64,000 nt of DNA from a virus, in IMG/VR virus record IMGVR_UViG_3300022309_000001, positions 1 to 64,000 of that record; one strand, 5' to 3'. Position numbers and translations under genes: made by a program. Below, piece by piece: positions 13,702 to 62,469 of this stretch. The number at the start of each line of letters is the position of its first letter. Within the stretch, counting starts at the first letter, position 1. The notes beneath the pieces are model-generated. The model saw nothing but the letters and a program-made list of their open reading frames with translations. It was not told the origin of the DNA and did not search any database.

Positions 13702-15084
13702 TCACTTGGCCTTCTCCTCTCCAGTCTTGTCCACCGGCTTGCCGTCCACCTTCACTACCTCGCCGTCCTCGAAGACGATGCCCACGTCGCCGTCGCCCAC
13801 CACCTCGAGGAACACCTGCACGCCGTGCTCGGCAGCCATCCTGGCCACCGCTTCGAGCGCGCCTTTGCCCAACAGCGAGGCGTTCGGGATGGGCACCACT
13901 CCCAGCCGGGGATGCTCGGCCAGCCACAGCGCGAAGGCGACCAGAATCTTCTTCGCCTGGCTCGCCTGCTCGAACGGCAGGCCGTTCAGCGTCACGCCGT
14001 CATCGGTGAAGCCCAACCCGTCCACCGGCAGCTTGGCAGCGGCCAGCATGTCGGCCTTCTCCTTGTCCACCGCCTTGATCTGCTCGGTCAGGGCGGCGGA
14101 CTGCGCGCGCAGATCCTCCAGCTCCTTGGCAAGCGTCGCCTTGGCCTCGGCGGCGTCCACTGCCTTGTTGGCGGACTCTGCGCTGGCGAGTTGAGCGGCC
14201 ACGGCTTCAAGTTCGGGCTGCACATCAACACACCCGGAAGCATCTTCCTCCGTAGTCGATTGCAGCGTCCTTGCATCAAGGAGGAGCGCCCGATGGGCGT
14301 CAAGGGTCTTCTGTCGGTCGGCCAGCTTCGCTCGTGCCTCATCAAGCGCAACCTCGGCCCTCCTGACATCGGCCTCCGCAAGCTGGAATTTCTCCTCAGT
14401 GCGCCTGACATCCATGCGGGCAGATTCCGCACGAGCCATCATCGCAAGACGACGGTCCTTGGAAGCCAGCAATTCCCTCTGCCGCTCCAGCACCTCGGCC
14501 ACGTCGACCCGCTTCGCGTCCGGCACCACCTTGATGGCGTCGTGCCTGGAGAGCGTGGCCTTGCCGTTGTTGTTGACGGTCGTGCGCTGGCCGTACAGCG
14601 CCTCGCGCTTGGCGTCGAGTTCTGTGAAGTTCAGCTTCGCGGCGCTCCGGAGGATTTCGATCTGCTCCGCTGGCTTCTTGGTGATGAAGCCGCCCGGGTC
14701 GAACCGCAGCGGCCCAAGCCAGCCGTCTAGGATGGCCTGCGGCGTGCTGTACTTCGCTCCGTCTGCGCTGCGCACCTGGACCGTCGTGCCTTTCTCGGTG
14801 ATGACGCGCTCGACCACCAGCCCATCGGGCGCGAACTTGCCGGTGATGCGGGCGCGCTTGGCACCCTTGTTGATGGGCACCGGGGGAAGCGCATCCTTGC
14901 CCCCGACCAACCCATGGATCGCGTCGAGAACGCTGGACTTCCCGGCTTCGTTGTCGCCCCGCAGATGTACCAGCTTCCCGCCTTGCTCCAACTCGAGCAG
15001 CGCCACCTTGATGCGTTTGAAGTTCTCAATCTCGAGGCTAGTCAGCGTCAACGGCCCCTTCTTCGCGTCGCCATCCTTCGTCAT
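13702..15084 (-). CDS. Rad50/SbcC/SMC-like AAA ATPase
   Basis: N-terminal LEIENFKRIK...LRGDNEAGKSSVLDAI (Walker A), central coiled coil, C-terminal ABC-type module. ATGA-coupled start at 15084. Confidence 0.7.
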   Translation of the reverse strand: MTKDGDAKKGPLTLTSLEIENFKRIKVALLELEQGGKLVHLRGDNEAGKSSVLDAIHGLVGGKDALPPVPINKGAKRARITGKFAPDGLVVERVITEKGTTVQVRSADGAKYSTPQAILDGWLGPLRFDPGGFITKKPAEQIEILRSAAKLNFTELDAKREALYGQRTTVNNNGKATLSRHDAIKVVPDAKRVDVAEVLERQRELLASKDRRLAMMARAESARMDVRRTEEKFQLAEADVRRAEVALDEARAKLADRQKTLDAHRALLLDARTLQSTTEEDASGCVDVQPELEAVAAQLASAESANKAVDAAEAKATLAKELEDLRAQSAALTEQIKAVDKEKADMLAAAKLPVDGLGFTDDGVTLNGLPFEQASQAKKILVAFALWLAEHPRLGVVPIPNASLLGKGALEAVARMAAEHGVQVFLEVVGDGDVGIVFEDGEVVKVDGKPVDKTGEEKAK

Positions 15085-15365
15085 GCTCCCTCCTCGAACT
15101 GGAACTCCAGCACCTCTCGCATCCACTCTGACTGCGAGACACCGCCCTGCTCAGCGGCCTCTGCTACTCGCCCGGCCAACTCCGCCGAGGCGTGCACCGT
15201 CAGTTTCACCGCACCTTCGCCCAGCCCCTCGTCCACCTCAGAGCCACGCCTGGCCCGCTGGTAGTGGCGGTCGCACATCCCAGCCGCCACCACCGGGCGC
15301 TGGCAGTCCTGCCCATCGTCATCCGGGACTATGCACTGCTGGGGACTCCACTCGCTCTGCTCCAC
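15081..15365 (-). CDS. zinc-finger plus ribbon-helix-helix DNA-binding protein
   Basis: GTG 15365 after GGGAGG. C..x..C...GMCDRHYQRARRG, then an RHH-like VKLTVHASAELAGRVAEAAEQGGVSQSEWMREVL. Start is uncertain (see findings). Confidence 0.5.
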   Translation of the reverse strand: MEQSEWSPQQCIVPDDDGQDCQRPVVAAGMCDRHYQRARRGSEVDEGLGEGAVKLTVHASAELAGRVAEAAEQGGVSQSEWMREVLEFQFEEGA

Positions 15366-23334: not shown

Positions 23335-23414
23335 GTCTCCTCCTTCTCGGGCGGCTCACACGTCATCTCGGCCGCTGCCTTCGCCGCCTCCAGCAAGTCC
23401 GGCGGGGGCGTCAT
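23331..23414 (-). CDS. 27-aa coupling micro-ORF
   Basis: MTPPPDLLEAAKAAAEMTCEPPEKEET. Its ATG overlaps the upstream stop (ATGA) and its TGA overlaps the downstream GTG (GTGA). High GC3. Confidence 0.3.
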   Translation of the reverse strand: MTPPPDLLEAAKAAAEMTCEPPEKEET

Positions 23415-23671
23415 GGCGCGCGGCCCCCGAGATCTTCGATGGCTGCCCTGATGGACAAAAGCCACTCGCTCCGATTCGCGGCGGCTCGGTAGCCATGCCA
23501 GGCCAACTTCGCGCTCGCGATGCGGACTGGCTCAGACTGCATCCACCAGATGAGACTCGCGCCAGCCGGACGCAGCGGAGCAAGAAGCGGCCGGCCCCTC
23601 TGCTTGCGATTGCGGGCCAGTGCCCGGAGCCTCTCCAGGATGGCGATAGCGGCGGCAACATCGGGCGTCAT
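23411..23671 (-). CDS. small helical paralog-family protein (leftward copy 1)
   Basis: 86 aa. ILERLRALARNRKQRGRPLLAPLRPAGASLIWWMQ...WHGYRAAANRSEWLLSIRAAIEDL aligns with 27201..27467. Confidence 0.5.
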   Translation of the reverse strand: MTPDVAAAIAILERLRALARNRKQRGRPLLAPLRPAGASLIWWMQSEPVRIASAKLAWHGYRAAANRSEWLLSIRAAIEDLGGRAP

Positions 23672-23946
23672 CGGGGCACCTCGTCGAGAGATCGAATGGC
23701 GCGCAGCACGGACCGCATCACCACGCCGCGCCTGATGGGCCGGTCGGACATGGCCAGCCAGTACCCGGCGCACGTCAGCGCGGCATCAACCAGTCTGTCT
23801 GTCGCCTCGTCCAGGGCCAGAAGGCGCTTCACTGCATAGGTGTCCCAGGAGCCGATAACGGGGACGAACCATCGTATCGGCGCCTCGACGGACAGGAGCG
23901 CCCAGAGCAGCGCCAGCGCCCACTGGGCCTGCTCTTGCGTCGTCAT
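23668..23946 (-). CDS. small helical paralog-family protein (leftward copy 2)
   Basis: 92 aa. MTTQEQAQWALALL...AGYWLAMSDRPIRRGVVMRSVLRAIRSLDE. Confidence 0.5.
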   Translation of the reverse strand: MTTQEQAQWALALLWALLSVEAPIRWFVPVIGSWDTYAVKRLLALDEATDRLVDAALTCAGYWLAMSDRPIRRGVVMRSVLRAIRSLDEVPR

Positions 23947-24176
23947 CGGACCGCCTCGTCGAGCGTGTCGATGGCGCTGCGAATGCGCCGGAAGAGCAGT
24001 CGACGCGAGCCCCCGCACATCGGGACAGCCCTGATCGTCCGCACAAGCGCGTCGTAAGCCAGCGCCTGCGCCCGGTCGCGTGGTGCCGAAAAGACGAGCA
24101 GGCTGCCCACCCCATCCACCAGCAGGCACGCCCGGTACAGCGCGAGCACCCACTGCGCCTGTTCTCGCGTCGTCAT
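23943..24176 (-). CDS. small helical paralog-family protein (leftward copy 3)
   Basis: 77 aa. MTTREQAQWVLALY...YDALVRTIRAV...LLFRRIRSAIDTLDE. Confidence 0.5.
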   Translation of the reverse strand: MTTREQAQWVLALYRACLLVDGVGSLLVFSAPRDRAQALAYDALVRTIRAVPMCGGSRRLLFRRIRSAIDTLDEAVR

Positions 24177-24511
24177 CGGCTCGCCTTCCCTTCCTGCGCC
24201 TCGGGGGCCGGCTCCATCGTCACGCGCACGCGCCCAGCCTCGACGTCCTCGGGAGTCCCGCCAGCGGCCCGGACAAGGGCCGCGCACCGGACCGCGAACG
24301 CCTCCTCTGCCCAGTGCGCCTCGCGGCGTTTCGCGTCCGCCGCCCACTTGGCATCCCGGGCGGCTCGCCGCTTTTCCACGGCTGATGGCGCGTGCTGGTA
24401 GCACCATGGCTTGCCGTCTTCGACGACGGTCGGCTTGCGGGAGCAGTCCGTAATCCCCCATGCGTCCGAGCTGACGCGCTCCGAGCACGGGCCGTTGATC
24501 GTCTCACCCAT
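24173..24511 (-). CDS. hypothetical protein
   Basis: 112 aa; ATGA coupling downstream. Confidence 0.5.
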   Translation of the reverse strand: MGETINGPCSERVSSDAWGITDCSRKPTVVEDGKPWCYQHAPSAVEKRRAARDAKWAADAKRREAHWAEEAFAVRCAALVRAAGGTPEDVEAGRVRVTMEPAPEAQEGKASR

Positions 24512-25358
24512 GGTGCGGTTCCTCCGGGGCCGGCTCCACTCCGGCGGCGCGGATGGAGGCGAGAAGCTGCTTCGCGCTTGCGTGCGTCGTCTCGTAGGCG
24601 TCGCCGTCTACCAGGAAGTCACCGTTGGAGCGATACTTGCCCACACTGCGCAAGCCGGCCACGAGATCCAACACCGTCGCGCACCGTCCGAGGAGCGCGC
24701 GCATGCCGTTCTCGTGCTTGCTCGTGCGCTCGTACCAGTCGCGGATCGTCTCATCGCTCGGATCCTGCCGAAGCGAGAGAGGGAGATGCCGGCTGCCGAG
24801 TTCGGCGATCTTCGCGCGCAGGTCGTGAAGTTCCACGTCCCTCGGGTCCTCGGCTGCCGGCCGCGCCCTCCGGGCCTCCTCGTCGGTGATGGCGCGCTCG
24901 AGGGCCGCAAGGTCTCCAAGGATCTCCGCCGCGTCCTCCTCGTGGATGAGCAGTGCCGGCCAGTCCCACGAGGTGACGGAGCGCAACGCTGCGAGCACGT
25001 CCGGTCCCTCCCGGTCCGCGCTCGCTGGCGGGGAGTCGGTGGGCTTCGGCTGGAACTCGGCGCACGGGTCAGACGCAACAAGGCGCCAGGGGAATCGCAT
25101 TCCAGTCGCGGTGCATCGGAAGCCATCGCCCTCCACGATATCGAAGATGTGCGCGCACTCGCGGCAGTCCACGACCGGCAGTGAGGCGGAGGATGGCACG
25201 AAGTCTTCGCACGGGTCCGACGCCACGACGCTCCATGGCATCAGCGTGTCTGACTTGGCGCATCGGTACGAGTAGCCTTCCTTGACATCGAAGACGTGCG
25301 CGCACTTCCGGCAGTCCACCGCCACAACGGCTCCCTTCTCAATATCTTCGTTATTCAC
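24504..25358 (-). CDS. protein with two tandem Cys-modules
   Basis: GTG 25358 (GTGA coupling). VDCRKCAHVFDV.EG..YRC....MPWSVVASDPCEDF is repeated as VDCRECAHIFDIVEGDGFRC...FPWRLVASDPCAEF. Confidence 0.55.
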   Translation of the reverse strand: MNNEDIEKGAVVAVDCRKCAHVFDVKEGYSYRCAKSDTLMPWSVVASDPCEDFVPSSASLPVVDCRECAHIFDIVEGDGFRCTATGMRFPWRLVASDPCAEFQPKPTDSPPASADREGPDVLAALRSVTSWDWPALLIHEEDAAEILGDLAALERAITDEEARRARPAAEDPRDVELHDLRAKIAELGSRHLPLSLRQDPSDETIRDWYERTSKHENGMRALLGRCATVLDLVAGLRSVGKYRSNGDFLVDGDAYETTHASAKQLLASIRAAGVEPAPEEPHHG

Positions 25359-25907: not shown

Positions 25908-26227
25908 CACGTCTCCTCCAGTTGCAACTCGCCAGCCTCGTCGATCCTCAGCCTGGTCGCGCCGGGCCAGGTGCTCAACCACTGGACGACGAAGCGCCGG
26001 GCTTCCTCCAGCGAAGTGGTGGCGCTCTTGGCCAGCGCATTGTCTAGGGTGTACGCGCACGACAGGTCGACGGCATCCATGGCGTACCACGGACCCTCAA
26101 TCGCGTCCCTGATGCTGTCGGCTTCCGGTCCTTGATCAAGCCCATCCCGTTCCAGCCGATCCAGCCGAATCGACAGGCGGATGTAGTCCACAAAGGCAGC
26201 CCGCGATTCGCCGCTTGCTCTGTCCAC
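25907..26227 (-). CDS. first gene of the leftward early operon, hypothetical
   Basis: GTG 26227 (or 26230) after AAGGAGGGA. The upstream part of the track ORF would overlap the promoter. Confidence 0.5.
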   Translation of the reverse strand: MDRASGESRAAFVDYIRLSIRLDRLERDGLDQGPEADSIRDAIEGPWYAMDAVDLSCAYTLDNALAKSATTSLEEARRFVVQWLSTWPGATRLRIDEAGELQLEET

Positions 26228-26355: not shown

Positions 26356-26715
26356 ATGGGTACGAGGTTCGGCGCGGAGTTGCGCGAGCGTCGTCAGTCC
26401 GCCGGCCTGACGATGAGGGAGTTGGCGAAGGGGCTAGAAGTCTCGCTGTCCTACGTCTCCGACGTGGAGCGCGGGAGCAGACGGCCATGGAGCGAGGACA
26501 AGGTACGTGCTGCGGCTGCCCTCGTCCGGGCGGATCCGGACGAGTTCGCTGCCCTTGCTGCGGAGGGGCGCGGCGGCTTCGTCCTGCGTGCTGTCGGGGT
26601 GTCGGACCAGCACGTGCGCGTCGGGGCGGAGTTGCAGCGGGCCTGGGAGCGCCTGGGCGAGGATGGGCTGTCCGCCATCGGACGGGCGCTGGTGCGGTAC
26701 GGAGGTGGGCGATGA
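26356..26715 (+). CDS. XRE-family helix-turn-helix regulator (Cro/CI-like)
   Basis: GAELRERRQSAGLTMRELAKGLEVSLSYVSDVERGSRRP is a canonical HTH_3 motif. ATG 26356 follows AAGGAGGAG. Confidence 0.8.
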   Translation: MGTRFGAELRERRQSAGLTMRELAKGLEVSLSYVSDVERGSRRPWSEDKVRAAAALVRADPDEFAALAAEGRGGFVLRAVGVSDQHVRVGAELQRAWERLGEDGLSAIGRALVRYGGGR

Positions 26716-26981
26716 GCGGCACGGAGTCTGGCGTCCTGACTCCCGAGTTGCGCGCCTGGACGCGGCGCTTCTGCCGGCACCTGTGCGACGAGATCAACGC
26801 CATGGCCGAACGCGAGCAGCGAGGCCCTGGAGACGTACTGGAGTCGCTGACGTTTGTGGCTACTGCGATCATCAAGGCCAAAGCGAAGACCGCGCAGGCC
26901 ATGGCGGCCAAGGCGAACCAGGCGTTCCAGCGGCGCAACGTGGCATCCGGGCAGCGGCGCTCCGGTCGGAGCAAGAAGTGA
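26712..26981 (+). CDS. hypothetical protein
   Basis: ATGA-coupled internal start of track ORF 26487..26981; 89 aa. Confidence 0.5.
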   Translation: MSGTESGVLTPELRAWTRRFCRHLCDEINAMAEREQRGPGDVLESLTFVATAIIKAKAKTAQAMAAKANQAFQRRNVASGQRRSGRSKK

Positions 26982-27232
26982 CCGGCGTCCCTCGCCAAGA
27001 GGCTGTCGATCTGCTGCGTCGCCTGCGCGCTGACGCTGTGCGGTTCGACATCCGGCCTAGCCTGGCCGGCATCGGGATGGTGCGGCTTGAGGTGTTCCGG
27101 GCCGTGCGCGAAGCGCTGGAGCGGCACGGCTACTACGAGCTGCCGGTGCCAACGCGGGAGAAGTGGCTGGCTGCAATCGACGGGGCGATTGCTGAAATGG
27201 ATGGTGGAGATGACGGACGAGACGAGAAGTGA
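26978..27232 (+). CDS. small helical paralog-family protein (rightward copy 1)
   Basis: GTGA coupling. EAVDLLRRLRADAVR...ALERHGYYELPVPTREKWLAAIDGAIAEMD. Confidence 0.5.
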   Translation: MTGVPRQEAVDLLRRLRADAVRFDIRPSLAGIGMVRLEVFRAVREALERHGYYELPVPTREKWLAAIDGAIAEMDGGDDGRDEK

Positions 27233-27467
27233 AGCCATCCGGGTGCTGAAGCGCATGCGCTGCCTGGCTAAGATCCGGGTGCAAAGGCCATCCCTTCGGC
27301 TCATGCGCCCGGCAGACGTTGGACTGCTGAAGTGGATGCAGACCGACGTGGCGCGCGCCGTCGCGGATGCGCTCTCCGGTACGCGCTACTACCGGGAGAC
27401 CTTGCGGACCGGGTGGCTCGCGTCGCTAGATAAGGCCATCGCGTCCCTGGAGGCCAGCGATGCCTGA
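27201..27467 (+). CDS. small helical paralog-family protein (rightward copy 2)
   Basis: EAIRVLKRMRCLAKIRVQRPSLRLMRPADVGLLKWMQ...ALSGTRYYRETLRTGWLASLDKAIASLE. Start is 27201 or 27210. Confidence 0.5.
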   Translation: MVEMTDETRSEAIRVLKRMRCLAKIRVQRPSLRLMRPADVGLLKWMQTDVARAVADALSGTRYYRETLRTGWLASLDKAIASLEASDA

Positions 27468-27723
27468 CATGTGCCACATCATCCGGGACAACGCGTTCCG
27501 TCGCCTGGCTGCCGTGCGGATGCTCCAGGCGCTGCGCGAGGAAGTGGCCGCCTGTCCAGATGTCGCCGGCCCCGTTCCTTCGCCCGGCCGCAACATCCTG
27601 GATGCCGAGAACGCCTTGATGTGGGCCGGCTGGTACGCGCTCGATGAGTCGTCCACTCGCGAGGAGCGGCTTCGCGTAGTGGAGGCCGCCATCGCTAGCC
27701 TGGAGCGGCGGGACGCGCCATGA
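27460..27723 (+). CDS. small helical paralog-family protein (rightward copy 3)
   Basis: NAFRRLAAVRMLQALR...ALMWAGWYALDESSTREERLRVVEAAIASLE. Confidence 0.5.
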   Translation: MPDMCHIIRDNAFRRLAAVRMLQALREEVAACPDVAGPVPSPGRNILDAENALMWAGWYALDESSTREERLRVVEAAIASLERRDAP

Positions 27724-27914
27724 CTCCGGGAGCGCGTCGGGATGCACGCGAGGCCAGGCGCCAGCTTCTCGGGGCTTCGCGACGCCTGGAGATGCTGGCC
27801 GCGATGCTGAGGGCCTCCGGGCATGTGCGCTGTGAGGAGGTGGAGAAGGACTGCGGCGCGGTACGCAAGGCCACCAAACGGTTGACGTTGATGCTGGAGG
27901 AGCGGACGAGATGA
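27720..27914 (+). CDS. small basic helical protein
   Basis: 64 aa; ATGA coupling on both sides. Confidence 0.45.
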   Translation: MTPGARRDAREARRQLLGASRRLEMLAAMLRASGHVRCEEVEKDCGAVRKATKRLTLMLEERTR

Positions 27915-28444
27915 GCGACAAGACGCAGACTGGGGACGGGTGTCCAATCTCGCCCGCCAAGTTGTTGTTGGTATGTCTCAGGGGCGCGGTTCGGAGGCGT
28001 GCTCTGCCAAAGCTGGCGGACTTCACCGAGACGAGAGGCGAGGCGTTCGAGACGGCCTACAGCGCGCTGGAGGAAACCGGCTACTACTCTTCGGCCCCCA
28101 CCACCCCCAGGCGCCGCAGGAAGTGCATCGACGCTGCGCTAGCCGCCATCTCGGGCGAGAAGCAGCCCAAGGCGCGGGGGGGCGAAGTCGTGACGCGCAC
28201 CACGTACATTCAGGCCAGCGCGCTTCTGCATCGTTTGCGGCGCATCGTTGCAAAGGACGCCGACGCGGCGCTTGTGTCTGCGTGGAAGCGTGAAAGGTGC
28301 GTCGCATTCGCTGCCGCGCACGATGCTCTGATGCAGACCAGATTCTACAACCTGACGCGCTCGCGCCCGGCGATGGTTCGCGCGGTAGGCCACGCACTGC
28401 AACTGCTTGCCCGCGCCGCACTGAAGGCGAGGGCGACGCTATGA
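27911..28444 (+). CDS. fused double copy of the helical paralog family
   Basis: Two modules in one ORF: ...YSALEETGYYSSAPTTPRRRRKCIDAALAAIS and ...ALLHRLRRIVAKD...HDALMQTRFYNLTRSRPAMVRAVGHALQLL. Confidence 0.55.
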   Translation: MSDKTQTGDGCPISPAKLLLVCLRGAVRRRALPKLADFTETRGEAFETAYSALEETGYYSSAPTTPRRRRKCIDAALAAISGEKQPKARGGEVVTRTTYIQASALLHRLRRIVAKDADAALVSAWKRERCVAFAAAHDALMQTRFYNLTRSRPAMVRAVGHALQLLARAALKARATL

Positions 28445-28641
28445 CGCGTGCCGAGCTAGTCATCCGGAGCGCGCTCGTGGGTGTGCATCGAACGCAGAGG
28501 CGGCTGGAGGCAGCGCGCACTGCACTGGCGACGTTGGATTCAGATGACCGCGAACGCCTCGAACTGGAGGCCGCGCTCTATGGCGCTGGGCTCGTGGAGA
28601 AGAAGCTGCTGGCGCTCTTGGGCGCCAAGGGGAAGCCATGA
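28441..28641 (+). CDS. small helical protein
   Basis: ATGA-coupled internal start of the track ORF; 66 aa. Confidence 0.45.
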   Translation: MTRAELVIRSALVGVHRTQRRLEAARTALATLDSDDRERLELEAALYGAGLVEKKLLALLGAKGKP

Positions 28642-30317
28642 CGGAGACGACGGTGTTGACGGCGGAGAGGCCGTCCGACGATCAGTTTGACCGCGACTTC
28701 ACGGCCGGCTGTCGAGCCCCGGACTGGGGTGAGCGGAGTTGTACGGCCGCCATCGAGGAGCTTCACGCCGAAGCCACGCGCGCCCGCGCTGGAGAGGCCA
28801 CCCTCCTCGCCGCACTCGAAGCGGCGCAGGAAGCGCTGGTGAAGGCGGAGTGGGAGCGCGACGAAACGTTTACCGCGCTCACGACCGCCGAGGGCGCGCT
28901 TGATGTTGCTGGTGGTCGCGCAGACCGCGCGAACGCGGAGCGCGACGAGGCCCTCGCCCGGCGCAAGGACGCCCTCGACTCGCTGTCCGCGATGACGCTC
29001 AAGCGGGACGCCCTCGTGGCCGAGAGGGATGCCATGGTGCTGGAGTCCGCGAACCTCGCGGCGCGGGTGGCGGAGCTGGAGGGGGCGCTTGCGGCGGCGA
29101 CAGAGCGGAACAAGGCATGGCGCGAGCGGGCATGGACCGTAATTGCCGCGCACGACCGCTTCATGGAGTCGGCTCACTACAGCGTCACCTATCGCGACTC
29201 GGATTCCGAGGCGCTCGATGTCGCCAGGCTGACTCAAATCGGCAAGCTGCGCGCCCTCGCCGCCGCCCTTCCCGAGCAGGCGCCCGGCATGGAGACTTGC
29301 GCCCGGGACGTGTGGCGGTGCTCGGGATGCGGCGAGATGCTCGACAACCCGCCGGGGACGGCCTGGCGCTGGAACGGGAAGGCGTGGGAGCACCGCTGCC
29401 CCGAGCGAGACCCGCAGGCCGGCTACGAGCCCGCCAAGAACTTCGGGCCGCGCGTGGCGCCCGGGCAGGCGCCCCGGACGGACGACGCGAAGGTGCGCGA
29501 GAGGCTCGCGCGCCTGGAATGGGCATTTCCAGCGCTGGACGGTCGCGGCTCATGCTTCTACTGCCTGCGAGTCCGCGAGGAGGGCCACGTCGGCGGATGC
29601 CCGGTCGCCGAGGTGTTGGCGCAAAGCCCGCCCCGGACGGCTGACGAAGCGCGCCCGGCCCTCCCCTGGCCCGCAACGGCGAACGCGATGCACGCCTGTG
29701 CAGACGCATTTCCTGACGTAGAGGTTGGGCACATCTACAACGTGTGCGAGCACCCGACAACGGCGGAGCACCGCACTCGAGATCTTGCGCTAGTAACCTG
29801 CCTTGATTGCCTGCGTGAGATCGCCTGGCAGCGGGGCGAGCACCTTGGGTCCGCGCGCCCGGCCGACGTGGGCGCGGCGCCCCCCGCCTCCACCGGGGTG
29901 GCGGAGTTCGACGCACAGATGCGGCGCGAGCTGGGGCTGGAGGCGCCCCCCGCCTCCACCGGGACGGACATTGGTAAATGCGCGACCTGTGTTCGCGCGC
30001 GGGACGACAGTTGCGCTCGCATGCACAAGACAGAAATCGGACCTCTGGTGTGCCCAGACTACCAGGGCAATTCCGAAGCCCCCACCGGGACGGCGCCCGA
30101 CCTCTCCCGGTTCGGCGACATGGCAGCGGAGGAGGCGCGGAAGCTGGGGGTGGCCGGGGACCCGCTCTGTGCGCGGGACCTCGGGGGCGTGCTCCCATGC
30201 GCGCATCGCAAATCGGAACACAGGCCGCAGTGCTGCGGCAACCAGCCGGGCGAAACAATCTGCCCTTGCCACCTCTTCGTCTCGCCGGGCGCCGGAGAGA
30301 GCGAGGGGGCGCCATGA
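28638..30317 (+). CDS. large coiled-coil protein with Cys/Trp-rich modules
   Basis: 559 aa. N-terminal half is Ala/Glu/Arg coiled coil. Then WRCSGCGEML...WRWNGKAWEHRCPE, CFYCL, CLDCL and CATCV motifs. Confidence 0.6.
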   Translation: MTETTVLTAERPSDDQFDRDFTAGCRAPDWGERSCTAAIEELHAEATRARAGEATLLAALEAAQEALVKAEWERDETFTALTTAEGALDVAGGRADRANAERDEALARRKDALDSLSAMTLKRDALVAERDAMVLESANLAARVAELEGALAAATERNKAWRERAWTVIAAHDRFMESAHYSVTYRDSDSEALDVARLTQIGKLRALAAALPEQAPGMETCARDVWRCSGCGEMLDNPPGTAWRWNGKAWEHRCPERDPQAGYEPAKNFGPRVAPGQAPRTDDAKVRERLARLEWAFPALDGRGSCFYCLRVREEGHVGGCPVAEVLAQSPPRTADEARPALPWPATANAMHACADAFPDVEVGHIYNVCEHPTTAEHRTRDLALVTCLDCLREIAWQRGEHLGSARPADVGAAPPASTGVAEFDAQMRRELGLEAPPASTGTDIGKCATCVRARDDSCARMHKTEIGPLVCPDYQGNSEAPTGTAPDLSRFGDMAAEEARKLGVAGDPLCARDLGGVLPCAHRKSEHRPQCCGNQPGETICPCHLFVSPGAGESEGAP

Positions 30318-33311: not shown

Positions 33312-33531
33312 GCAGCGCAAGACGAGCATCGGGACTTGCATCATCGAAGGACTCGGGCGACCAGAGTACGCCGGCCTTCCGACGCTGAACCTCGAGTGCC
33401 CGGAGTGCGGTTCGAGGTGGGTTGCTAAGCCCCGGCCGGATGGGCTCGGCTACGACTTGCAGATCTGCCCGAACGCGCAGTGCCAGAAGGCGCAGCGGGA
33501 CAGGGCAGCGGCGGAGGTGCCGACGCCATGA
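33304..33531 (+). CDS. zinc-ribbon protein
   Basis: CPECGSRW...CPNAQC; 75 aa. Confidence 0.5.
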   Translation: MTEQRKTSIGTCIIEGLGRPEYAGLPTLNLECPECGSRWVAKPRPDGLGYDLQICPNAQCQKAQRDRAAAEVPTP

Positions 33532-34361
33532 ACAAGCCAAAGGAACGTCCGATCCTTTTCTCGACGGAGATGATGCGCCGGCTGTTGGCCGGCGAGAAGA
33601 CACAGACCCGGAGGCTCATCGAGTGGCAGCCGCTCGAGGAGGGCTTGAGCCTCAGCTTCAGCGGGCTGTCGGTCGGCGAGTACTGCACCGGAGACCGGCG
33701 GAGCGGCTACGTCCTGCGCTCGCAGAGCGGCGGCTGCTGGCAGGACCGCACGATGCCGCTGAAGTGCAAGCTGGGATACGCGGGGGACTTGCTCTGGACG
33801 CGCGAGGCGTGGGCGCAGCTTCGGGGGTGCGCACCGAGTGACCGGGCTCGCACAATCAGCCGCCACAACAGGTCCTGTGATGTCATCTGGCGTGCGGATG
33901 GTCCATTTGTGTGGGGCCAAACTGACGCGAGGCTGTGGCTGCCGGGCGACCCTTCTCCAGACTCCGAAATCCCATGGCGCCCATCCATCCACATGCCGCG
34001 CTGGGCCTCCCGCTGCACACTGGAACTGACGCGCGACCGGCTGCCCGAGCGTCTCCGGAGCATCACCGAGGAGGACGCAATGGCTGAGGGCTTCCGGCCT
34101 GTGGTGCATGAGAGCTGGTCGGCGTTCGATCCACACACCGAGGCTTATCCGGAGTTCATGTCCGAGCCGACAGCCGAGGATATCGCCCGCTTCGGCTACC
34201 AGAACGTCCGTCACCACGGGCCGAAGGTCATCGCCACCGCGCGCGACGCCTTCAGGACGTACTGGGACGGCCAGTACGGCAAGCGAGACGGTGGGCGCTG
34301 CTCCTGGGATGCGAATCCATGGGTGCAGCCGTACGAGTTCAAGGTGGTGAATCGTGGCTAG
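33528..34361 (+). CDS. phage protein with ASCH/PUA-like N-terminal motif (copy 1)
   Basis: PILFSTEMMRRLLAGEKTQTRR and HMPRWASRCTLELT...ITEEDAMAEGF. Paralogous to 36216..36917. Fold assignment is tentative. Confidence 0.45.
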   Translation: MNKPKERPILFSTEMMRRLLAGEKTQTRRLIEWQPLEEGLSLSFSGLSVGEYCTGDRRSGYVLRSQSGGCWQDRTMPLKCKLGYAGDLLWTREAWAQLRGCAPSDRARTISRHNRSCDVIWRADGPFVWGQTDARLWLPGDPSPDSEIPWRPSIHMPRWASRCTLELTRDRLPERLRSITEEDAMAEGFRPVVHESWSAFDPHTEAYPEFMSEPTAEDIARFGYQNVRHHGPKVIATARDAFRTYWDGQYGKRDGGRCSWDANPWVQPYEFKVVNRG

Positions 34362-35312: not shown

Positions 35313-36223
35313 AGGATCCGCTGGTGAAGCTGCGGTTGACGGATGCGCGCAAGTGCCGCGCAAGCATGCCGGGATGGGGCAACCTCGCGCACGGCCGGGC
35401 GCTCGATGCCGCGATCTCCGCCGCCGAGAAGCTCTCCGACAGGAAGAAGGCGCGGCCCCTGAAGCAGAAGCACGAGAAGCCATCGAAGCTCGACCGGCTC
35501 CAGAAGGGCCACAAGAGGCGCAGCGCCAAGGCGCAGCGAACGACGCTCGTCTACGATGCCGTCAAGAAGCGAGCCGGCGGTTTCTGTGAGTTCTGCGGTA
35601 TAGCGTTCGACCAGACGCTGAGCGGCGCGCCGGAGATGGATCACTTCTGGGGCAGGGGCGAGACGGGCGACAAGGCTGAGAGCATCGAGACGTGCTGGAT
35701 GCTGCATGCTGGCTGCCACAAGCTGAAGACGGACAACGTCCCGTCGCGGGTCGTGTGGCTGGAGCGCTTCCGCTTCTACGCGAGCACCCTCCACTATGCC
35801 ACGCAGAGAGACTTGGCGCTCCGGGAGATCGAATCCGAGGAACTCGTCGTGCGGGCCGCTGCCGTCACGCGGCTTGGGAAGGACTTGTTGGTGGACGCCG
35901 TTGGTGACAAGTTGTCGGTGAAGTACATTCGGGCGGTCGCTGGCGTCTCGTACAGCAACATCATCTGGCAACCCGCCTGGCCGATGCGGAACGGGACGTT
36001 CCCGTCTGGGCACCCATGCTTTGGAAACCCGAGGCCACTGACTTTCGGAGTCGAGCCAGAAACCACAGACCCGCTTGGACGCTTTCGGGGCCGGGGCTAC
36101 TTCGCGAGTTGCTTTCCTGAAGGAGACGGGATCAGCTTCGCTCCGTTGAATGACGAGCGCCCGGACGAGGTTGTCATGCGCGACATCGCCGAGTGCTTCG
36201 GCTTTGAGGTGCGCCGTGGATAG
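35309..36223 (+). CDS. HNH/NinG-like nuclease-motif protein
   Basis: CEFCG...MDHFWGRG...CHKLKTD in the central region; basic N-terminus. Confidence 0.5.
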   Translation: MKDPLVKLRLTDARKCRASMPGWGNLAHGRALDAAISAAEKLSDRKKARPLKQKHEKPSKLDRLQKGHKRRSAKAQRTTLVYDAVKKRAGGFCEFCGIAFDQTLSGAPEMDHFWGRGETGDKAESIETCWMLHAGCHKLKTDNVPSRVVWLERFRFYASTLHYATQRDLALREIESEELVVRAAAVTRLGKDLLVDAVGDKLSVKYIRAVAGVSYSNIIWQPAWPMRNGTFPSGHPCFGNPRPLTFGVEPETTDPLGRFRGRGYFASCFPEGDGISFAPLNDERPDEVVMRDIAECFGFEVRRG

Positions 36224-36917
36224 GCCCCTCATCTGCCCCGACTGGGAAGTCCAGGGCCTGCTGGCCGGGCGCATTAAGCTGCTTTGGCGTCCAGTCCAGC
36301 ACTGCAAGGAGTTCCCCGACTCAAACCAGTGGCCGGTATGGTATCCGGCCAAGGATGGGGCGCCGGTCTTCCTGGACCGTGACGGCAAGGGCGCGGACAA
36401 GCTGGCGCTCCGGTACGCGCACGGGAAGCGCTCGCCCTTCGGTGTCGCTGGGGACACGGCCTGGATCCGGGAGACGTGGCGTGTTTGCGCCATAGAGCGC
36501 ACGCGATGCGCCGATGGGGAACGGTATATGGCCGGTGTCCAGTTCAAGTCCGGTGGTGCGATGTTCGTCACCATCTCGCCCGACCAGAAAGCGCAGTCGG
36601 TGGTTGTGCGGCCGGGACGTGACAAGTGGCGCTCGTCCAGCCATATGCCCCGCTGGGCATCCCGCCTCTCGGTGCTCGTCGAAAGCGTCCGGCCGCTGCG
36701 TGTCCAGAGCGCCACAGAAGAAGACGCGCGCCTGTCCGGACTGGACCAGTACACACTCCGGGCCGCCGACGAGAGCCCGGACGCAGACATCCCGAGACGA
36801 GGGCTGGCGAAGTTGTGGGACGCCAGGATCGCGCGCCGTCCAGAGCACGCCTGGGAGCGCAACCCGTGGGCATGGTGCGCGAACGTGAAGGTGCAGGAGG
36901 TGAGCTGTGGCAAGTGA
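36216..36917 (+). CDS. phage protein with ASCH/PUA-like motif (copy 2)
   Basis: LICPDWEVQGLLAGRIKLLWRP and HMPRWASRLSVLVE...ATEEDARLSGL parallel 33528..34361. Confidence 0.45.
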   Translation: MDRPLICPDWEVQGLLAGRIKLLWRPVQHCKEFPDSNQWPVWYPAKDGAPVFLDRDGKGADKLALRYAHGKRSPFGVAGDTAWIRETWRVCAIERTRCADGERYMAGVQFKSGGAMFVTISPDQKAQSVVVRPGRDKWRSSSHMPRWASRLSVLVESVRPLRVQSATEEDARLSGLDQYTLRAADESPDADIPRRGLAKLWDARIARRPEHAWERNPWAWCANVKVQEVSCGK

Positions 36918-44855: not shown

Positions 44856-45074
44856 GTGGAAGGAAGCAACAGGCAGAGCCCGCTGCTCAAGGCGGCAATC
44901 GAGGCGAGGGAGAGAGAGCAATACCAGGCCAGATCCGAACAGGGCTGGCGCCCTACCTGCCGGTACTGTGGCCGGAGAGTGGTAGGCGACGAAGAAGACT
45001 CCGGCGCCCATGAGGGCTGCGCACGACAGGCCAGGGTGAGCGGCGTACAGCTTCGACTTGATGGGATGAGGTGA
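44856..45074 (+). CDS. hypothetical protein
   Basis: GTG 44856 after GGAAGGAGAAGCAA; 72 aa with CRYCG. Confidence 0.4.
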   Translation: MEGSNRQSPLLKAAIEAREREQYQARSEQGWRPTCRYCGRRVVGDEEDSGAHEGCARQARVSGVQLRLDGMR

Positions 45075-46678
45075 ACGTGGCGACAAGACGACTGAAGATT
45101 AGCGACGTGGACGAGAACGACGTGGAGGTGCAGGAGAAGGAGCAGATGACCTACTTCCAGCACGGAGATCTCCGCCCAGCCCCGGGCAACCGAAGCAACT
45201 TCAACCCAGACAAGCTCGAGGAGTTGGCCATCTCGATTGCTGGCATTGGCCTCATTCATGCGCTGCTGGTACGCCCCATCCCGGGCGGGCACGAGATTGT
45301 GGCCGGCGAGAGGCGCTGGAGGGCCTGGACGCGGGCGGGTGTCCTGCGCGCCGAGTTGAACCAGAAGCGAGCGCAGGAAGGAGAGCAGGCGCTTCCGGCA
45401 CTGGACACCGTGCCGTGTGTTGTGCGCGTCATGTCCGATGAGCAAGCAATCCAGGCCCGCTGCGTGGAGAACGCGCAGCGCGAGGACGTGACGCCGCTCG
45501 ACGAGGCGCACGCCTACCAGGAGCTGGTGGCGCTCGGGCGCACGCAGGCGGACGTGGCCGCCATGGTGGGCAGGACGCGGGTGCATGTCAGCGAGCGCCT
45601 CAGCCTGTTGCGGCTGTGCCCGGAGGCGGTCGAGATGCTGACTGACGGGAGGTTGCCAGTCACGCACTGCACCTTGCTGTCTTCGCTGCCGGGACACGCT
45701 ACCCAGCGGGAGGCGCTGGCCGCGCTGGTGACTGGCAAGCCCAAGCCTCCGCCCGCGCGCGCCTTCCAGCACGCGCTCCAGGAGCGCTACTTCTGCCGGC
45801 TCAGCGGATCGACCTTCTCGCTGAAGGACGTGAAGCCGTGGCCAGAGCGAGGCGCCTGCACCGCATGTCCGAAGCGCGCCGGAAACTGCCGAGAGCAGTA
45901 CCCCGGAATCCACGATGACAACATCTGCGTGGATCCGCCATGCTTCCACGAGAAGCTGAAGATCGCGACCTCGCACCGCATCGCCCAGGCCCAGAAGTCC
46001 GGCGCGGAGATACTGCCGCCGGCAGCGCTGGACGGACTGCTGAAGGGCAAGAAGCTCCGCCCGGAAGCCCCATACGTCGAGCTGTCCAGCCTGGTGCCGC
46101 AGGACAAGAGCGGACGCACCTGGGCCACGGTGGCGAAGCAGGCCAAGAAGATCGGCGCAGCTCCCAAGGCGCTGGCGGCCGTCACACCGTCCGGGCGAGT
46201 CATGATGGTGGCCGAGAAGGCTAAGATGGTGGAGGCCCTCGCGGCGCTGAGCGGAGCATCGAAGCAGACCAGCCCGGAGCGCCAGGCGCCCCCATCCGGT
46301 GCGTCCAACTCGGCGCGAGCCATCGAGTCGGTGTGCCGCACCGTGGCGCTGGCGGCTGCCAAGCGGGCCGGAGAGCACGGGCTGTCACAGACGTTGCTCC
46401 AGCTCGCCGCCGAGTCGATGGCGGCCTCCGGGCTTGACACTGAAGGGGCCACGAGCCTCGTTACGGCAATCGCCAAGGCCAAGGACTACGACTTCAAGAC
46501 AGCGCTCGGCCGCCTCGGAGTCGCGGACTTGCAGGCCGTCATCGCGGTCCTGGCGATCGAGTTCGCCAGCGGCTTCGAGGCCCCACAGGACGGGCAGCTG
46601 CCAGCGATCATCAAGTCGCTAGCCGCGCAGCTCAGACTGGACACGGACAAGATGCTGCAAGAGGCGGCCGGAGAGTAG
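45071..46678 (+). CDS. ParB/Spo0J-family protein (ParB N-terminal domain plus HTH, extended C-terminus)
   Basis: GLIHALLVRPIPGGHEIVAGERRWRA, ENAQREDVTPLDEAHAY and GRTQADVAAMVGRTRVHVSERLSLLRL. Confidence 0.75.
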   Translation: MNVATRRLKISDVDENDVEVQEKEQMTYFQHGDLRPAPGNRSNFNPDKLEELAISIAGIGLIHALLVRPIPGGHEIVAGERRWRAWTRAGVLRAELNQKRAQEGEQALPALDTVPCVVRVMSDEQAIQARCVENAQREDVTPLDEAHAYQELVALGRTQADVAAMVGRTRVHVSERLSLLRLCPEAVEMLTDGRLPVTHCTLLSSLPGHATQREALAALVTGKPKPPPARAFQHALQERYFCRLSGSTFSLKDVKPWPERGACTACPKRAGNCREQYPGIHDDNICVDPPCFHEKLKIATSHRIAQAQKSGAEILPPAALDGLLKGKKLRPEAPYVELSSLVPQDKSGRTWATVAKQAKKIGAAPKALAAVTPSGRVMMVAEKAKMVEALAALSGASKQTSPERQAPPSGASNSARAIESVCRTVALAAAKRAGEHGLSQTLLQLAAESMAASGLDTEGATSLVTAIAKAKDYDFKTALGRLGVADLQAVIAVLAIEFASGFEAPQDGQLPAIIKSLAAQLRLDTDKMLQEAAGE

Positions 46679-55521: not shown

Positions 55522-55737
55522 ATGGCAACCAAGCTAGTGAGAATGGGCGATGCGGTATACGAGGTTCCGGAGGACGGGTGCCGGGCGCTTCTCAACGCGC
55601 TCGTCCGTGGCGAGCATGCCCGGCTGTCCGACCACGGAGCAAGGTTCCTCGGCTCGTCGGTGGACTTGCTTGGCAAGACGCGGGACGACGCTATCCAGGC
55701 GCTGCACGACCTGGACGCTTCGGAGGCGCAGGAGTGA
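55522..55737 (+). CDS. hypothetical protein
   Basis: ATG after AAGGAGGACACG; 71 aa. Confidence 0.5.
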   Translation: MATKLVRMGDAVYEVPEDGCRALLNALVRGEHARLSDHGARFLGSSVDLLGKTRDDAIQALHDLDASEAQE

Positions 55738-55982
55738 ACGGCAGGCCCGACAGCGCATCCGCCGAGTTGCTGGCGCTTCGGCGCCGCGCCCGGGAGTTCT
55801 GTAGGGCCTACCGTCCGGTCCTGCCGGTTGGACTTCATCCACCCTACCGGACCGACGCCCAGCTTCGCGCCCAGGACGCGCTCCAGGCGGCCGGCTACTA
55901 CGAGACGGGCATCATGTACGACACGGCGGGCTGGGTGGCTGCAATCGACCGGGCGATTGCGCTTGACGCACGGGCGGCATAG
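55734..55982 (+). CDS. small helical paralog-family protein (dispersed copy)
   Basis: AELLALRRRAREFCRAY...QDALQAAGYYETGIMYDTAGWVAAIDRAIAL; GTGA coupling. Confidence 0.5.
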   Translation: MNGRPDSASAELLALRRRAREFCRAYRPVLPVGLHPPYRTDAQLRAQDALQAAGYYETGIMYDTAGWVAAIDRAIALDARAA

Positions 55983-62268: not shown

Positions 62269-62342
62269 CGGGATGTGGCGCAGCCTGGAAGCGCACTCGC
62301 CTTGGGCGCGAGGGGCCGGGGGTTCAAATCCCTCCATCCCGA
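62269..62342 (+). tRNA. tRNA-Pro (anticodon UGG)
   Basis: Manual cloverleaf. Acceptor CGGGATG/CATCCCG; D stem GCGC/GCGC with an AGCCTGGAA loop. Anticodon stem CTCGC/GCGAG with loop CTTGGGC. 5-nt variable loop; T stem GGGGG/CCCTC with loop TTCAAAT. Discriminator A; no encoded CCA. Confidence 0.85.
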
Positions 62343-62469
62343 CTTGGAGGCTCCTGCCTACGGTGGTGCGCCGGTGTCCGGTGACGGCTTGGTGCGACCT
62401 CCGGTAGACGGCAGCGACCGTCGAATTAGCGGTGGGCAGGAGCCTCCAGTAGTACAAGCAGAGGCGAAT

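Follow-up and report, generated by a model that had tools for sequence, protein, structure and literature searches.

What kind of proteins are encoded by the small genes crowded at the head of the rightward operon in this viral DNA, and do they belong to one family? The stretch analysed here (the window) comprises 64,000 nucleotides (nt), positions 1 to 64,000 of IMG/VR record IMGVR_UViG_3300022309_000001. It belongs to a metagenome contig of 98,894 bp (ENA ERZ27296412 k141_2878059) which has a GC content of about 67% and, judged by its gene content, is a phage genome. A preliminary description, made from the letters of the window alone, had read positions 26978-28444 as a tandem array of five consecutive, translationally coupled copies (A to E) of an unrecognised small helical domain, distributed over four genes and suggested to be under diversifying selection. 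In our analysis the five domains proved to be protein-coding and homologous. They represent a real, rare, unannotated and apparently phage-restricted family, bigger and older than the preliminary description had it.

Because high-GC DNA yields many Ala/Arg-rich spurious open reading frames (ORFs), similarity among the copies was tested against shuffled sequences. Smith-Waterman z-scores (1000 shuffles) reached 16 for A-B and 13 for A-D, with lower values for C-D (6.1), A-C (4.5) and D-E (4.3). A profile built from A to D and their homologues, with E left out, detected E with an independent E-value (i-E) of 8e-7 over profile positions 7-81, that is, over nearly its full length. Furthermore, when the whole subfamily of a given copy was removed from the profile and the 1123 six-frame segments of the window were searched, each copy was still recovered, with E-values of 1.4e-18 (A), 1e-16 (B), 1e-10 (C), 3e-10 (D) and 2e-7 (E). 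Profile similarity between the five domains, as the preliminary description had proposed it, was thus significant throughout (2e-7 to 1e-18). The family profile matched only segments in called coding frames (1122 six-frame window segments), third-position GC peaked in the claimed frame of each gene, and an independent public gene caller gave the same genes on the source contig.

All genes of the array lie on the plus strand. The rightward operon is opened by a gene encoding an XRE-family helix-turn-helix (HTH) protein of 119 amino acids (aa) (26356..26715; Pfam HTH_31, 6e-15; public gene call), followed by an 89-aa gene that is not a member of the family (26712..26981; third-position GC and public call, no profile match). 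Then come copy A (26978..27232, 84 aa, GTG start), copy B (27210..27467, 85 aa), copy C (27460..27723, 87 aa), gene X (27720..27914, 64 aa; basic and helical, unrelated, no match to the family profile) and a gene of 177 aa in which domains D and E are fused (27911..28444, two profile domains). Downstream are a 66-aa non-member gene (28441..28641; public call, no profile match), which overlaps the fusion gene by 4 nt, and a 559-aa gene (28638-30317). Overlaps, mostly ATGA or GTGA, are present at every junction from the XRE gene through the 559-aa gene (28638), in keeping with the proposed translational coupling. The copies do not strictly succeed one another, since gene X splits C from D-E. Similarly, the array is indeed located near the head of the rightward operon and downstream of the XRE gene, yet not directly behind it, as the 89-aa gene intervenes. 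The frames of the four genes stand as first given; for gene B, the start at 27210 is more likely than the originally proposed 27201, according to the public call and the homologues. A homologue of gene X with 71% identity sits behind an A-type copy in another phage contig (L004), and gene X may be a conserved partner of the family. As for the 559-aa protein, its N-terminal part is coiled-coil-like, it contains many Cys/His clusters, a 51-residue stretch matches contig L009, and no Pfam match was found.

Five copies is too low a number. A six-frame scan of the whole window with the same family profile revealed two more members. Copy F (23411..23671, minus strand, 86 aa; i-E 9e-9, leave-one-out E 2e-11; public gene call) is located in the leftward early operon. 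Copy H (55734..55982, plus strand, 82 aa; i-E 1e-10, leave-one-out E 2.5e-13) lies far from the array, and its GTG start overlaps the stop of the upstream gene; the 82-aa cluster P0029, recorded for the 98,894-bp contig, is presumably this copy. The phage thus carries at least seven domains: beside the five of the array, which open the rightward early operon, there are F in the leftward operon and H elsewhere. Directly upstream of F, two paralogous small genes on the minus strand, G1 (23943-24176) and G2 (23668-23946), gave weak profile matches (i-E 0.17-0.68), with 4-nt overlaps between G1 and G2 and between G2 and F. Both start with MTT(R/Q)EQAQW, and a faint family likeness can be seen in their C-terminal helix, ending ...AI(R/D)(S/T)LDE, and in an AGYW in G2. 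They are possibly very divergent relatives, but were left out of the member count because hhalign gave a probability below 14%, despite P values of 0.002-0.004.

The fused pair deserves a separate comment. Domain D spans about 27947-28162 and is followed by a 10-residue linker, domain E about 28193-28420. In other contigs, D-type (P0005) and E-type (P0011, P0013) proteins are encoded by separate genes; stand-alone D-type genes end "...ALKGE*" and stand-alone E-type genes start "MTR(T/A)T...". The junction in the fusion reads "...ISGE-KQPKARGGEV-V(GTG, 28190)-TRTT...", so that the GTG at 28190, in frame and with G-rich sequence before it, falls exactly on the start site of the stand-alone E-type genes. 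The fusion looks as if it arose by loss of a stop codon, joining two neighbouring genes. As the former start codon persists in frame, a separate E product might still be made. The same 177-aa gene is present in a second assembly (L002), maybe from the same sample.

How rare, then, is the family? No model in Pfam-A, PHROGs v4 or NCBIfam 20 matched the ORFs of the window array or any of 25 members scanned singly; the best library E-values (0.006-0.2) were each obtained for one or two members, and pointed to a different unrelated family every time. Six proteins were found when 5.8 billion protein clusters were searched by word index. With HMMER run exhaustively over 1.84 billion representatives, 22 were returned at E below 1e-3; two of these, the large proteins P0015 and P0018, are repeat proteins in which weak short matches add up, and were rejected as false positives, which leaves about 20 members. 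Each of those remaining has a single domain and a length of 71-132 aa, and all those with a listed source come from metagenome assemblies (Logan, ENA or JGI). Across all searches, about 30 family sequences were collected. No relatives were found among 50,697 GenBank phages, either by blastn of the region or by tblastn of the family consensus, and pattern scans of GTDB representative genomes, IMG/VR and JGI metagenome contigs gave no confirmed relatives; the full family alignment is without any conserved stretch of 7-10 residues. A sequence-profile search of the PDB gave no match to the family, and Foldseek comparison of the copy A model with PDB and BFVD gave nothing below E 1; taken together, these searches were empty below E of about 0.1-1. 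The label "unrecognised" therefore holds against Pfam, PHROGs, NCBIfam, PDB sequences, PDB folds and BFVD alike.

The age of the copies can be judged from their grouping. In a neighbour-joining tree, A clustered with P0006 and P0008, B with P0009, P0012 and P0025, D with P0005, E with P0011 and P0013, and H with P0014 and P0016. Since the copies group with orthologues from other contigs and DNA-level similarity among array copies is limited to motif-length matches, the paralogs represent old subfamilies, at least six distinct ones. Recent tandem duplication is thereby rejected, and the earlier picture of tandem copies diversified on the spot is not supported.

Diversifying selection did not find support either. 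The one comparison available was with the sister contig L005, to which overall nucleotide identity is 89%. In it, the ratio of nonsynonymous to synonymous substitution rates (dN/dS) was 0.23 for A, 0.23 for B, 0.44 for C, 0.29 for X and 0.34 for D, values which indicate purifying selection on all five genes. Within gene C, sliding identity to the sister contig falls to 55-75% in the 5' part (27470-27650), while most flanking windows are at 90-98%. This patch, corresponding to the N-terminal ~150 nt, is hypervariable at synonymous sites too (dS 1.1, dN/dS 0.29), and looks like mosaic replacement by a divergent allele, that is, short recombination inside one gene rather than positive selection.

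Conservation in the family falls mostly on hydrophobic core residues, plus one invariant Arg. An AlphaFold2 model of copy A, based on an eight-sequence alignment, was confident (predicted local distance difference test, pLDDT, 83.7; predicted template modelling score 0.74) and showed a small helical bundle with predicted helices at residues 6-22, 29-32, 37-49 and 60-76. In the domain of about 80 residues, the N-terminal helix carries xEAxxLLxRLR and is followed by a P-x-L turn; the next helix ends in AL-x3-GYY, and the C-terminal one contains (I/V)D-x-A(I/L)-x-x-L, frequently as IDRAIAxLE. The N-terminal and C-terminal motifs noticed at the outset are thus real: L13, R17, L47, Y53 and A70 are invariant or nearly so, and D68 is 84% conserved. 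Low-entropy columns are mainly hydrophobic (A9, L13, L16, L29, A43, A46, L47, I67, A70, I71, L74) and spaced i/i+3/i+4/i+7, as on one helix face. Beyond these, conservation is seen at P27, Y52, Y53, D68 and R17, the last being invariant. Conservation of R15 amounts to 76%, and 72% of members have K/R at position 60. Exposed columns, on the other hand, are of high entropy. Net charge varies from -3.4 to +13.6 and the isoelectric point (pI) from 5.0 to 11.9 across members, with a pI above 9 in 17 of the 28 members tabulated (many at 10-12) and acidic values of 5.0-5.8 in A, C, P0006, P0008, P0020 and P0023. This pattern is what a fixed scaffold with diversified surfaces would produce.

The surroundings of the family in other phage contigs are partly repeated and partly variable. 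In contig L003, a gene matching RHH_1 (4e-5) is followed by a D-type and then a B-type copy. In L006, a ribbon-helix-helix-like gene (RHH_1, 3e-3) precedes an E-type copy and a second copy, with one more copy leftward. L009 has two small genes and then one copy just right of a divergent junction, plus one copy leftward, while L007 carries a near-tandem pair (an E-type copy, an 84-aa gene, then an H-type copy), L004 an A-type copy followed by the gene X homologue, and L008 a single B-type copy. A ribbon-helix-helix gene thus directly precedes the first copy in two contigs, an XRE gene lies upstream in the window, and some copies occur without a ribbon-helix-helix gene. Copies are found at the head of divergent operons also in L003, L006 and L009, and leftward copies also in L006 and L009. 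Two placements therefore recur. One is close to the beginning of the rightward operon, following a small regulator gene, and the other is in the leftward operon. Together with the copies, recombination or repair genes are found in the leftward operons (an SbcC-like ATPase gene in the window, Mu Gam and AAA_24 in L009). The other contigs have one to three copies in differing subfamily combinations, and the window, with seven domains, has the largest repertoire seen. No non-family partner gene common to all loci was found.

What might these proteins do? Our best guess, held tentatively and as possible rather than probable, is that they are immediate-early small protein-binding modulators. Produced immediate-early, they would inhibit targets of the host or the phage, or serve such targets as adaptors. 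The bundle core would provide a constant scaffold, the variable surface of each subfamily would set its specificity, and the members would probably act as homo- or hetero-oligomers. Protein-binding modulators fit best because a constant core is combined with charge-diverse surfaces, without a DNA-binding signature. They are further favoured because old subfamilies under purifying selection have been shuffled between phages, beside early regulators. The D-E fusion, the tandem pairs in L003 and L006 and the near-tandem pair in L007 make oligomers compatible with the data. A host-takeover, anti-defence or decoy role, as put forward in the preliminary description, is a plausible guess. Several points speak against protein-binding modulators, however. 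Most members tabulated have a pI above 9, and the conserved polar residues R15, R17, R60, Y52 and Y53 might instead make up a binding site for nucleic acid or a ligand. The AlphaFold2 model of the D-E fusion (pLDDT 53) is too poor to show how the domains pack, and nearness to an early promoter is guilt by association only.

These points lead to the principal competing explanation, unlikely in our view, according to which the members are small basic helical nucleic-acid-binding regulators. Their Arg-rich first helix would bind DNA or RNA; together with the XRE or ribbon-helix-helix gene, they would tune early transcription, antitermination or the switch. The location of copies just downstream of such regulators, the invariant R17 with the well-conserved R15 and K/R at position 60, and the many members with a pI of 10-12 all agree with this. 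Nevertheless, several members are acidic, and R17 may do no more than pair with D68 in a salt bridge between helices. None of the 25 members scanned matched an HTH, ribbon-helix-helix or other DNA-binding Pfam family (a lone HTH_36 match, E 0.17, was seen in one member), and Foldseek of the confident copy A model matched none of the HTH folds, although these are abundant in the PDB. The chance that the proteins belong instead to an internal machine of the phage, as its stoichiometric subunits or chaperones, seems small; accessory factors of replication or recombination, kept equimolar by translational coupling, would be an example. The overlap at every array junction, the recombination and repair genes in the leftward operons and the physical association suggested by the D-E fusion would all suit such a machine, yet copy number (1 to 7) and subfamily set differ strongly among related phages, which is unusual for a conserved machine, and a non-family partner shared by all loci is missing. 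Finally, it is most improbable that the array consists of chance Ala/Arg-rich ORFs of high-GC DNA or of decaying, non-functional duplicates. The 67% GC region is indeed crowded with long spurious ORFs on both strands, but chance ORFs and pseudogenes are ruled out by the shuffle z-scores of up to 16, profile matches confined to called coding frames, dN/dS below 0.5, orthologues in at least seven independent metagenome contigs and the confident AlphaFold2 model of copy A.

Returning to protein-binding modulators, we can also speculate about a bolder form of this idea, itself rather unlikely. The family would be a new superfamily of immediate-early effectors in which each old subfamily neutralises a different host target, the products form combinatorial homo- or heterodimers, repertoires vary among phages and D-E represents a fixed pair.

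Early small proteins that bind host proteins are known from several phages, and the present case is a new family of a kind already well known, in which phages encode small early proteins in multi-gene sets. One of them, T4 AsiA, is an early small all-helical phage protein that binds a host protein; the domain described here is small and all-helical, too. The host-takeover module of SPO1 is a cluster of early small proteins whose characterised members bind host proteins (bioRxiv 10.1101/569657), and the T7 class I proteins Gp2 and Gp5.7 are early small proteins that do the same (bioRxiv 10.1101/262279). The early clusters of SPO1, T7 and T4 encode small proteins that in many cases lack recognisable homologues, and they lie where early transcription units begin; the array resembles them in this, its own early transcription unit being putative. 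Neither the search of PDB sequences nor Foldseek, however, showed similarity of sequence or fold to any of them, and while those modules are made of unrelated genes, the window contains at least seven copies of one family.

A second comparison is with anti-CRISPR (Acr) operons and their associated regulators (Aca). Guilt by association with small regulators is a standard route to the discovery of anti-defence genes (PMC11065993). As in Acr/Aca operons, unannotated small proteins are encoded together with a small HTH or ribbon-helix-helix regulator (XRE in the window, RHH_1 in L003 and L006), and the content varies among phages. On the other hand, the regulator here is located upstream and not downstream, and the copies are paralogs of one fold, not unrelated genes. 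No significant homologue among characterised anti-defence proteins was seen in PDB sequences or by Foldseek against PDB and BFVD, no dedicated anti-defence library having been searched, and no chain of the Acb2 or Tad nucleotide-signal sponges occurred among the Foldseek PDB matches with E up to 10. A toxin-antitoxin pair was considered and rejected, as there is no match to a toxin family, the number of copies varies and some of them have no accompanying ribbon-helix-helix gene. Small helical immunity proteins (4nso_B, 4nsr, 2ip6) headed the Foldseek list; immunity proteins of type VI secretion and bacteriocins share with this family the idea of a conserved scaffold and a variable binding surface, but the match itself (E 1.7-6, probability at most 0.16, template modelling score 0.33-0.37) was treated as noise.

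It has repeatedly emerged that small early proteins of phages inhibit the transcription, proteolysis and immunity of their hosts. Compact, confidently foldable, present in multiple copies and placed beside early regulators, the members of the family are well-defined candidates for anti-defence and host-takeover screens, and they offer a natural system in which to follow the diversification of binding surfaces on a single scaffold. The rarity of the family (the ~30 sequences given above) limits its value, and nothing seen so far singles it out as mechanistically exceptional.

The array lies next to the point where two divergent operons meet, with leftward genes starting at 26227 and rightward genes at 26356. 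Its placement at this junction is based on the switch in sign of the GC skew at about 26 kb, on gene orientation and on the overlapping genes; a scan for the sigma-70 consensus picked out no promoter in the window and was uninformative for promoters and terminators. The minimum of the cumulative GC skew (~26000) coincides exactly with the divergent leftward/rightward junction. Elsewhere, the phage encodes a baseplate J/wedge protein (1136-2494; PHROG 6, 4e-49), the SbcC-like ATPase of the leftward operon (13702-15126, minus strand), a ParB-like protein (45071-46678), an N6/N4 methylase, an RNA-ligase-like gene and a single tRNA-Pro (TGG; 62269-62343, plus strand). The cultured-phage relatives of its baseplate, ATPase and ParB proteins are only 30-36% identical and have various hosts, and a scan of genome contigs with the baseplate protein, aimed at finding the host, came back empty.

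Two further observations concern other genes of the window. A 284-aa protein encoded in the window at 24504-25358 (minus strand) contains a tandem pair of Cys-rich, zinc-ribbon-like repeats, each about 45 residues long and reading VDCR(K/E)CAH(V/I)FD...C...DPC; it has no Pfam match, and homologues are encoded in the leftward operons of L006 and L009. The genes at 33528-34361 and 36216-36917 (both plus strand, without Pfam match) both match one same gene, located at 2148-2804 in L003 and at 10392-11030 in L009, and are probably paralogs. In L009 that gene is directly 3' of a family copy, and in L003 one gene lies between them.

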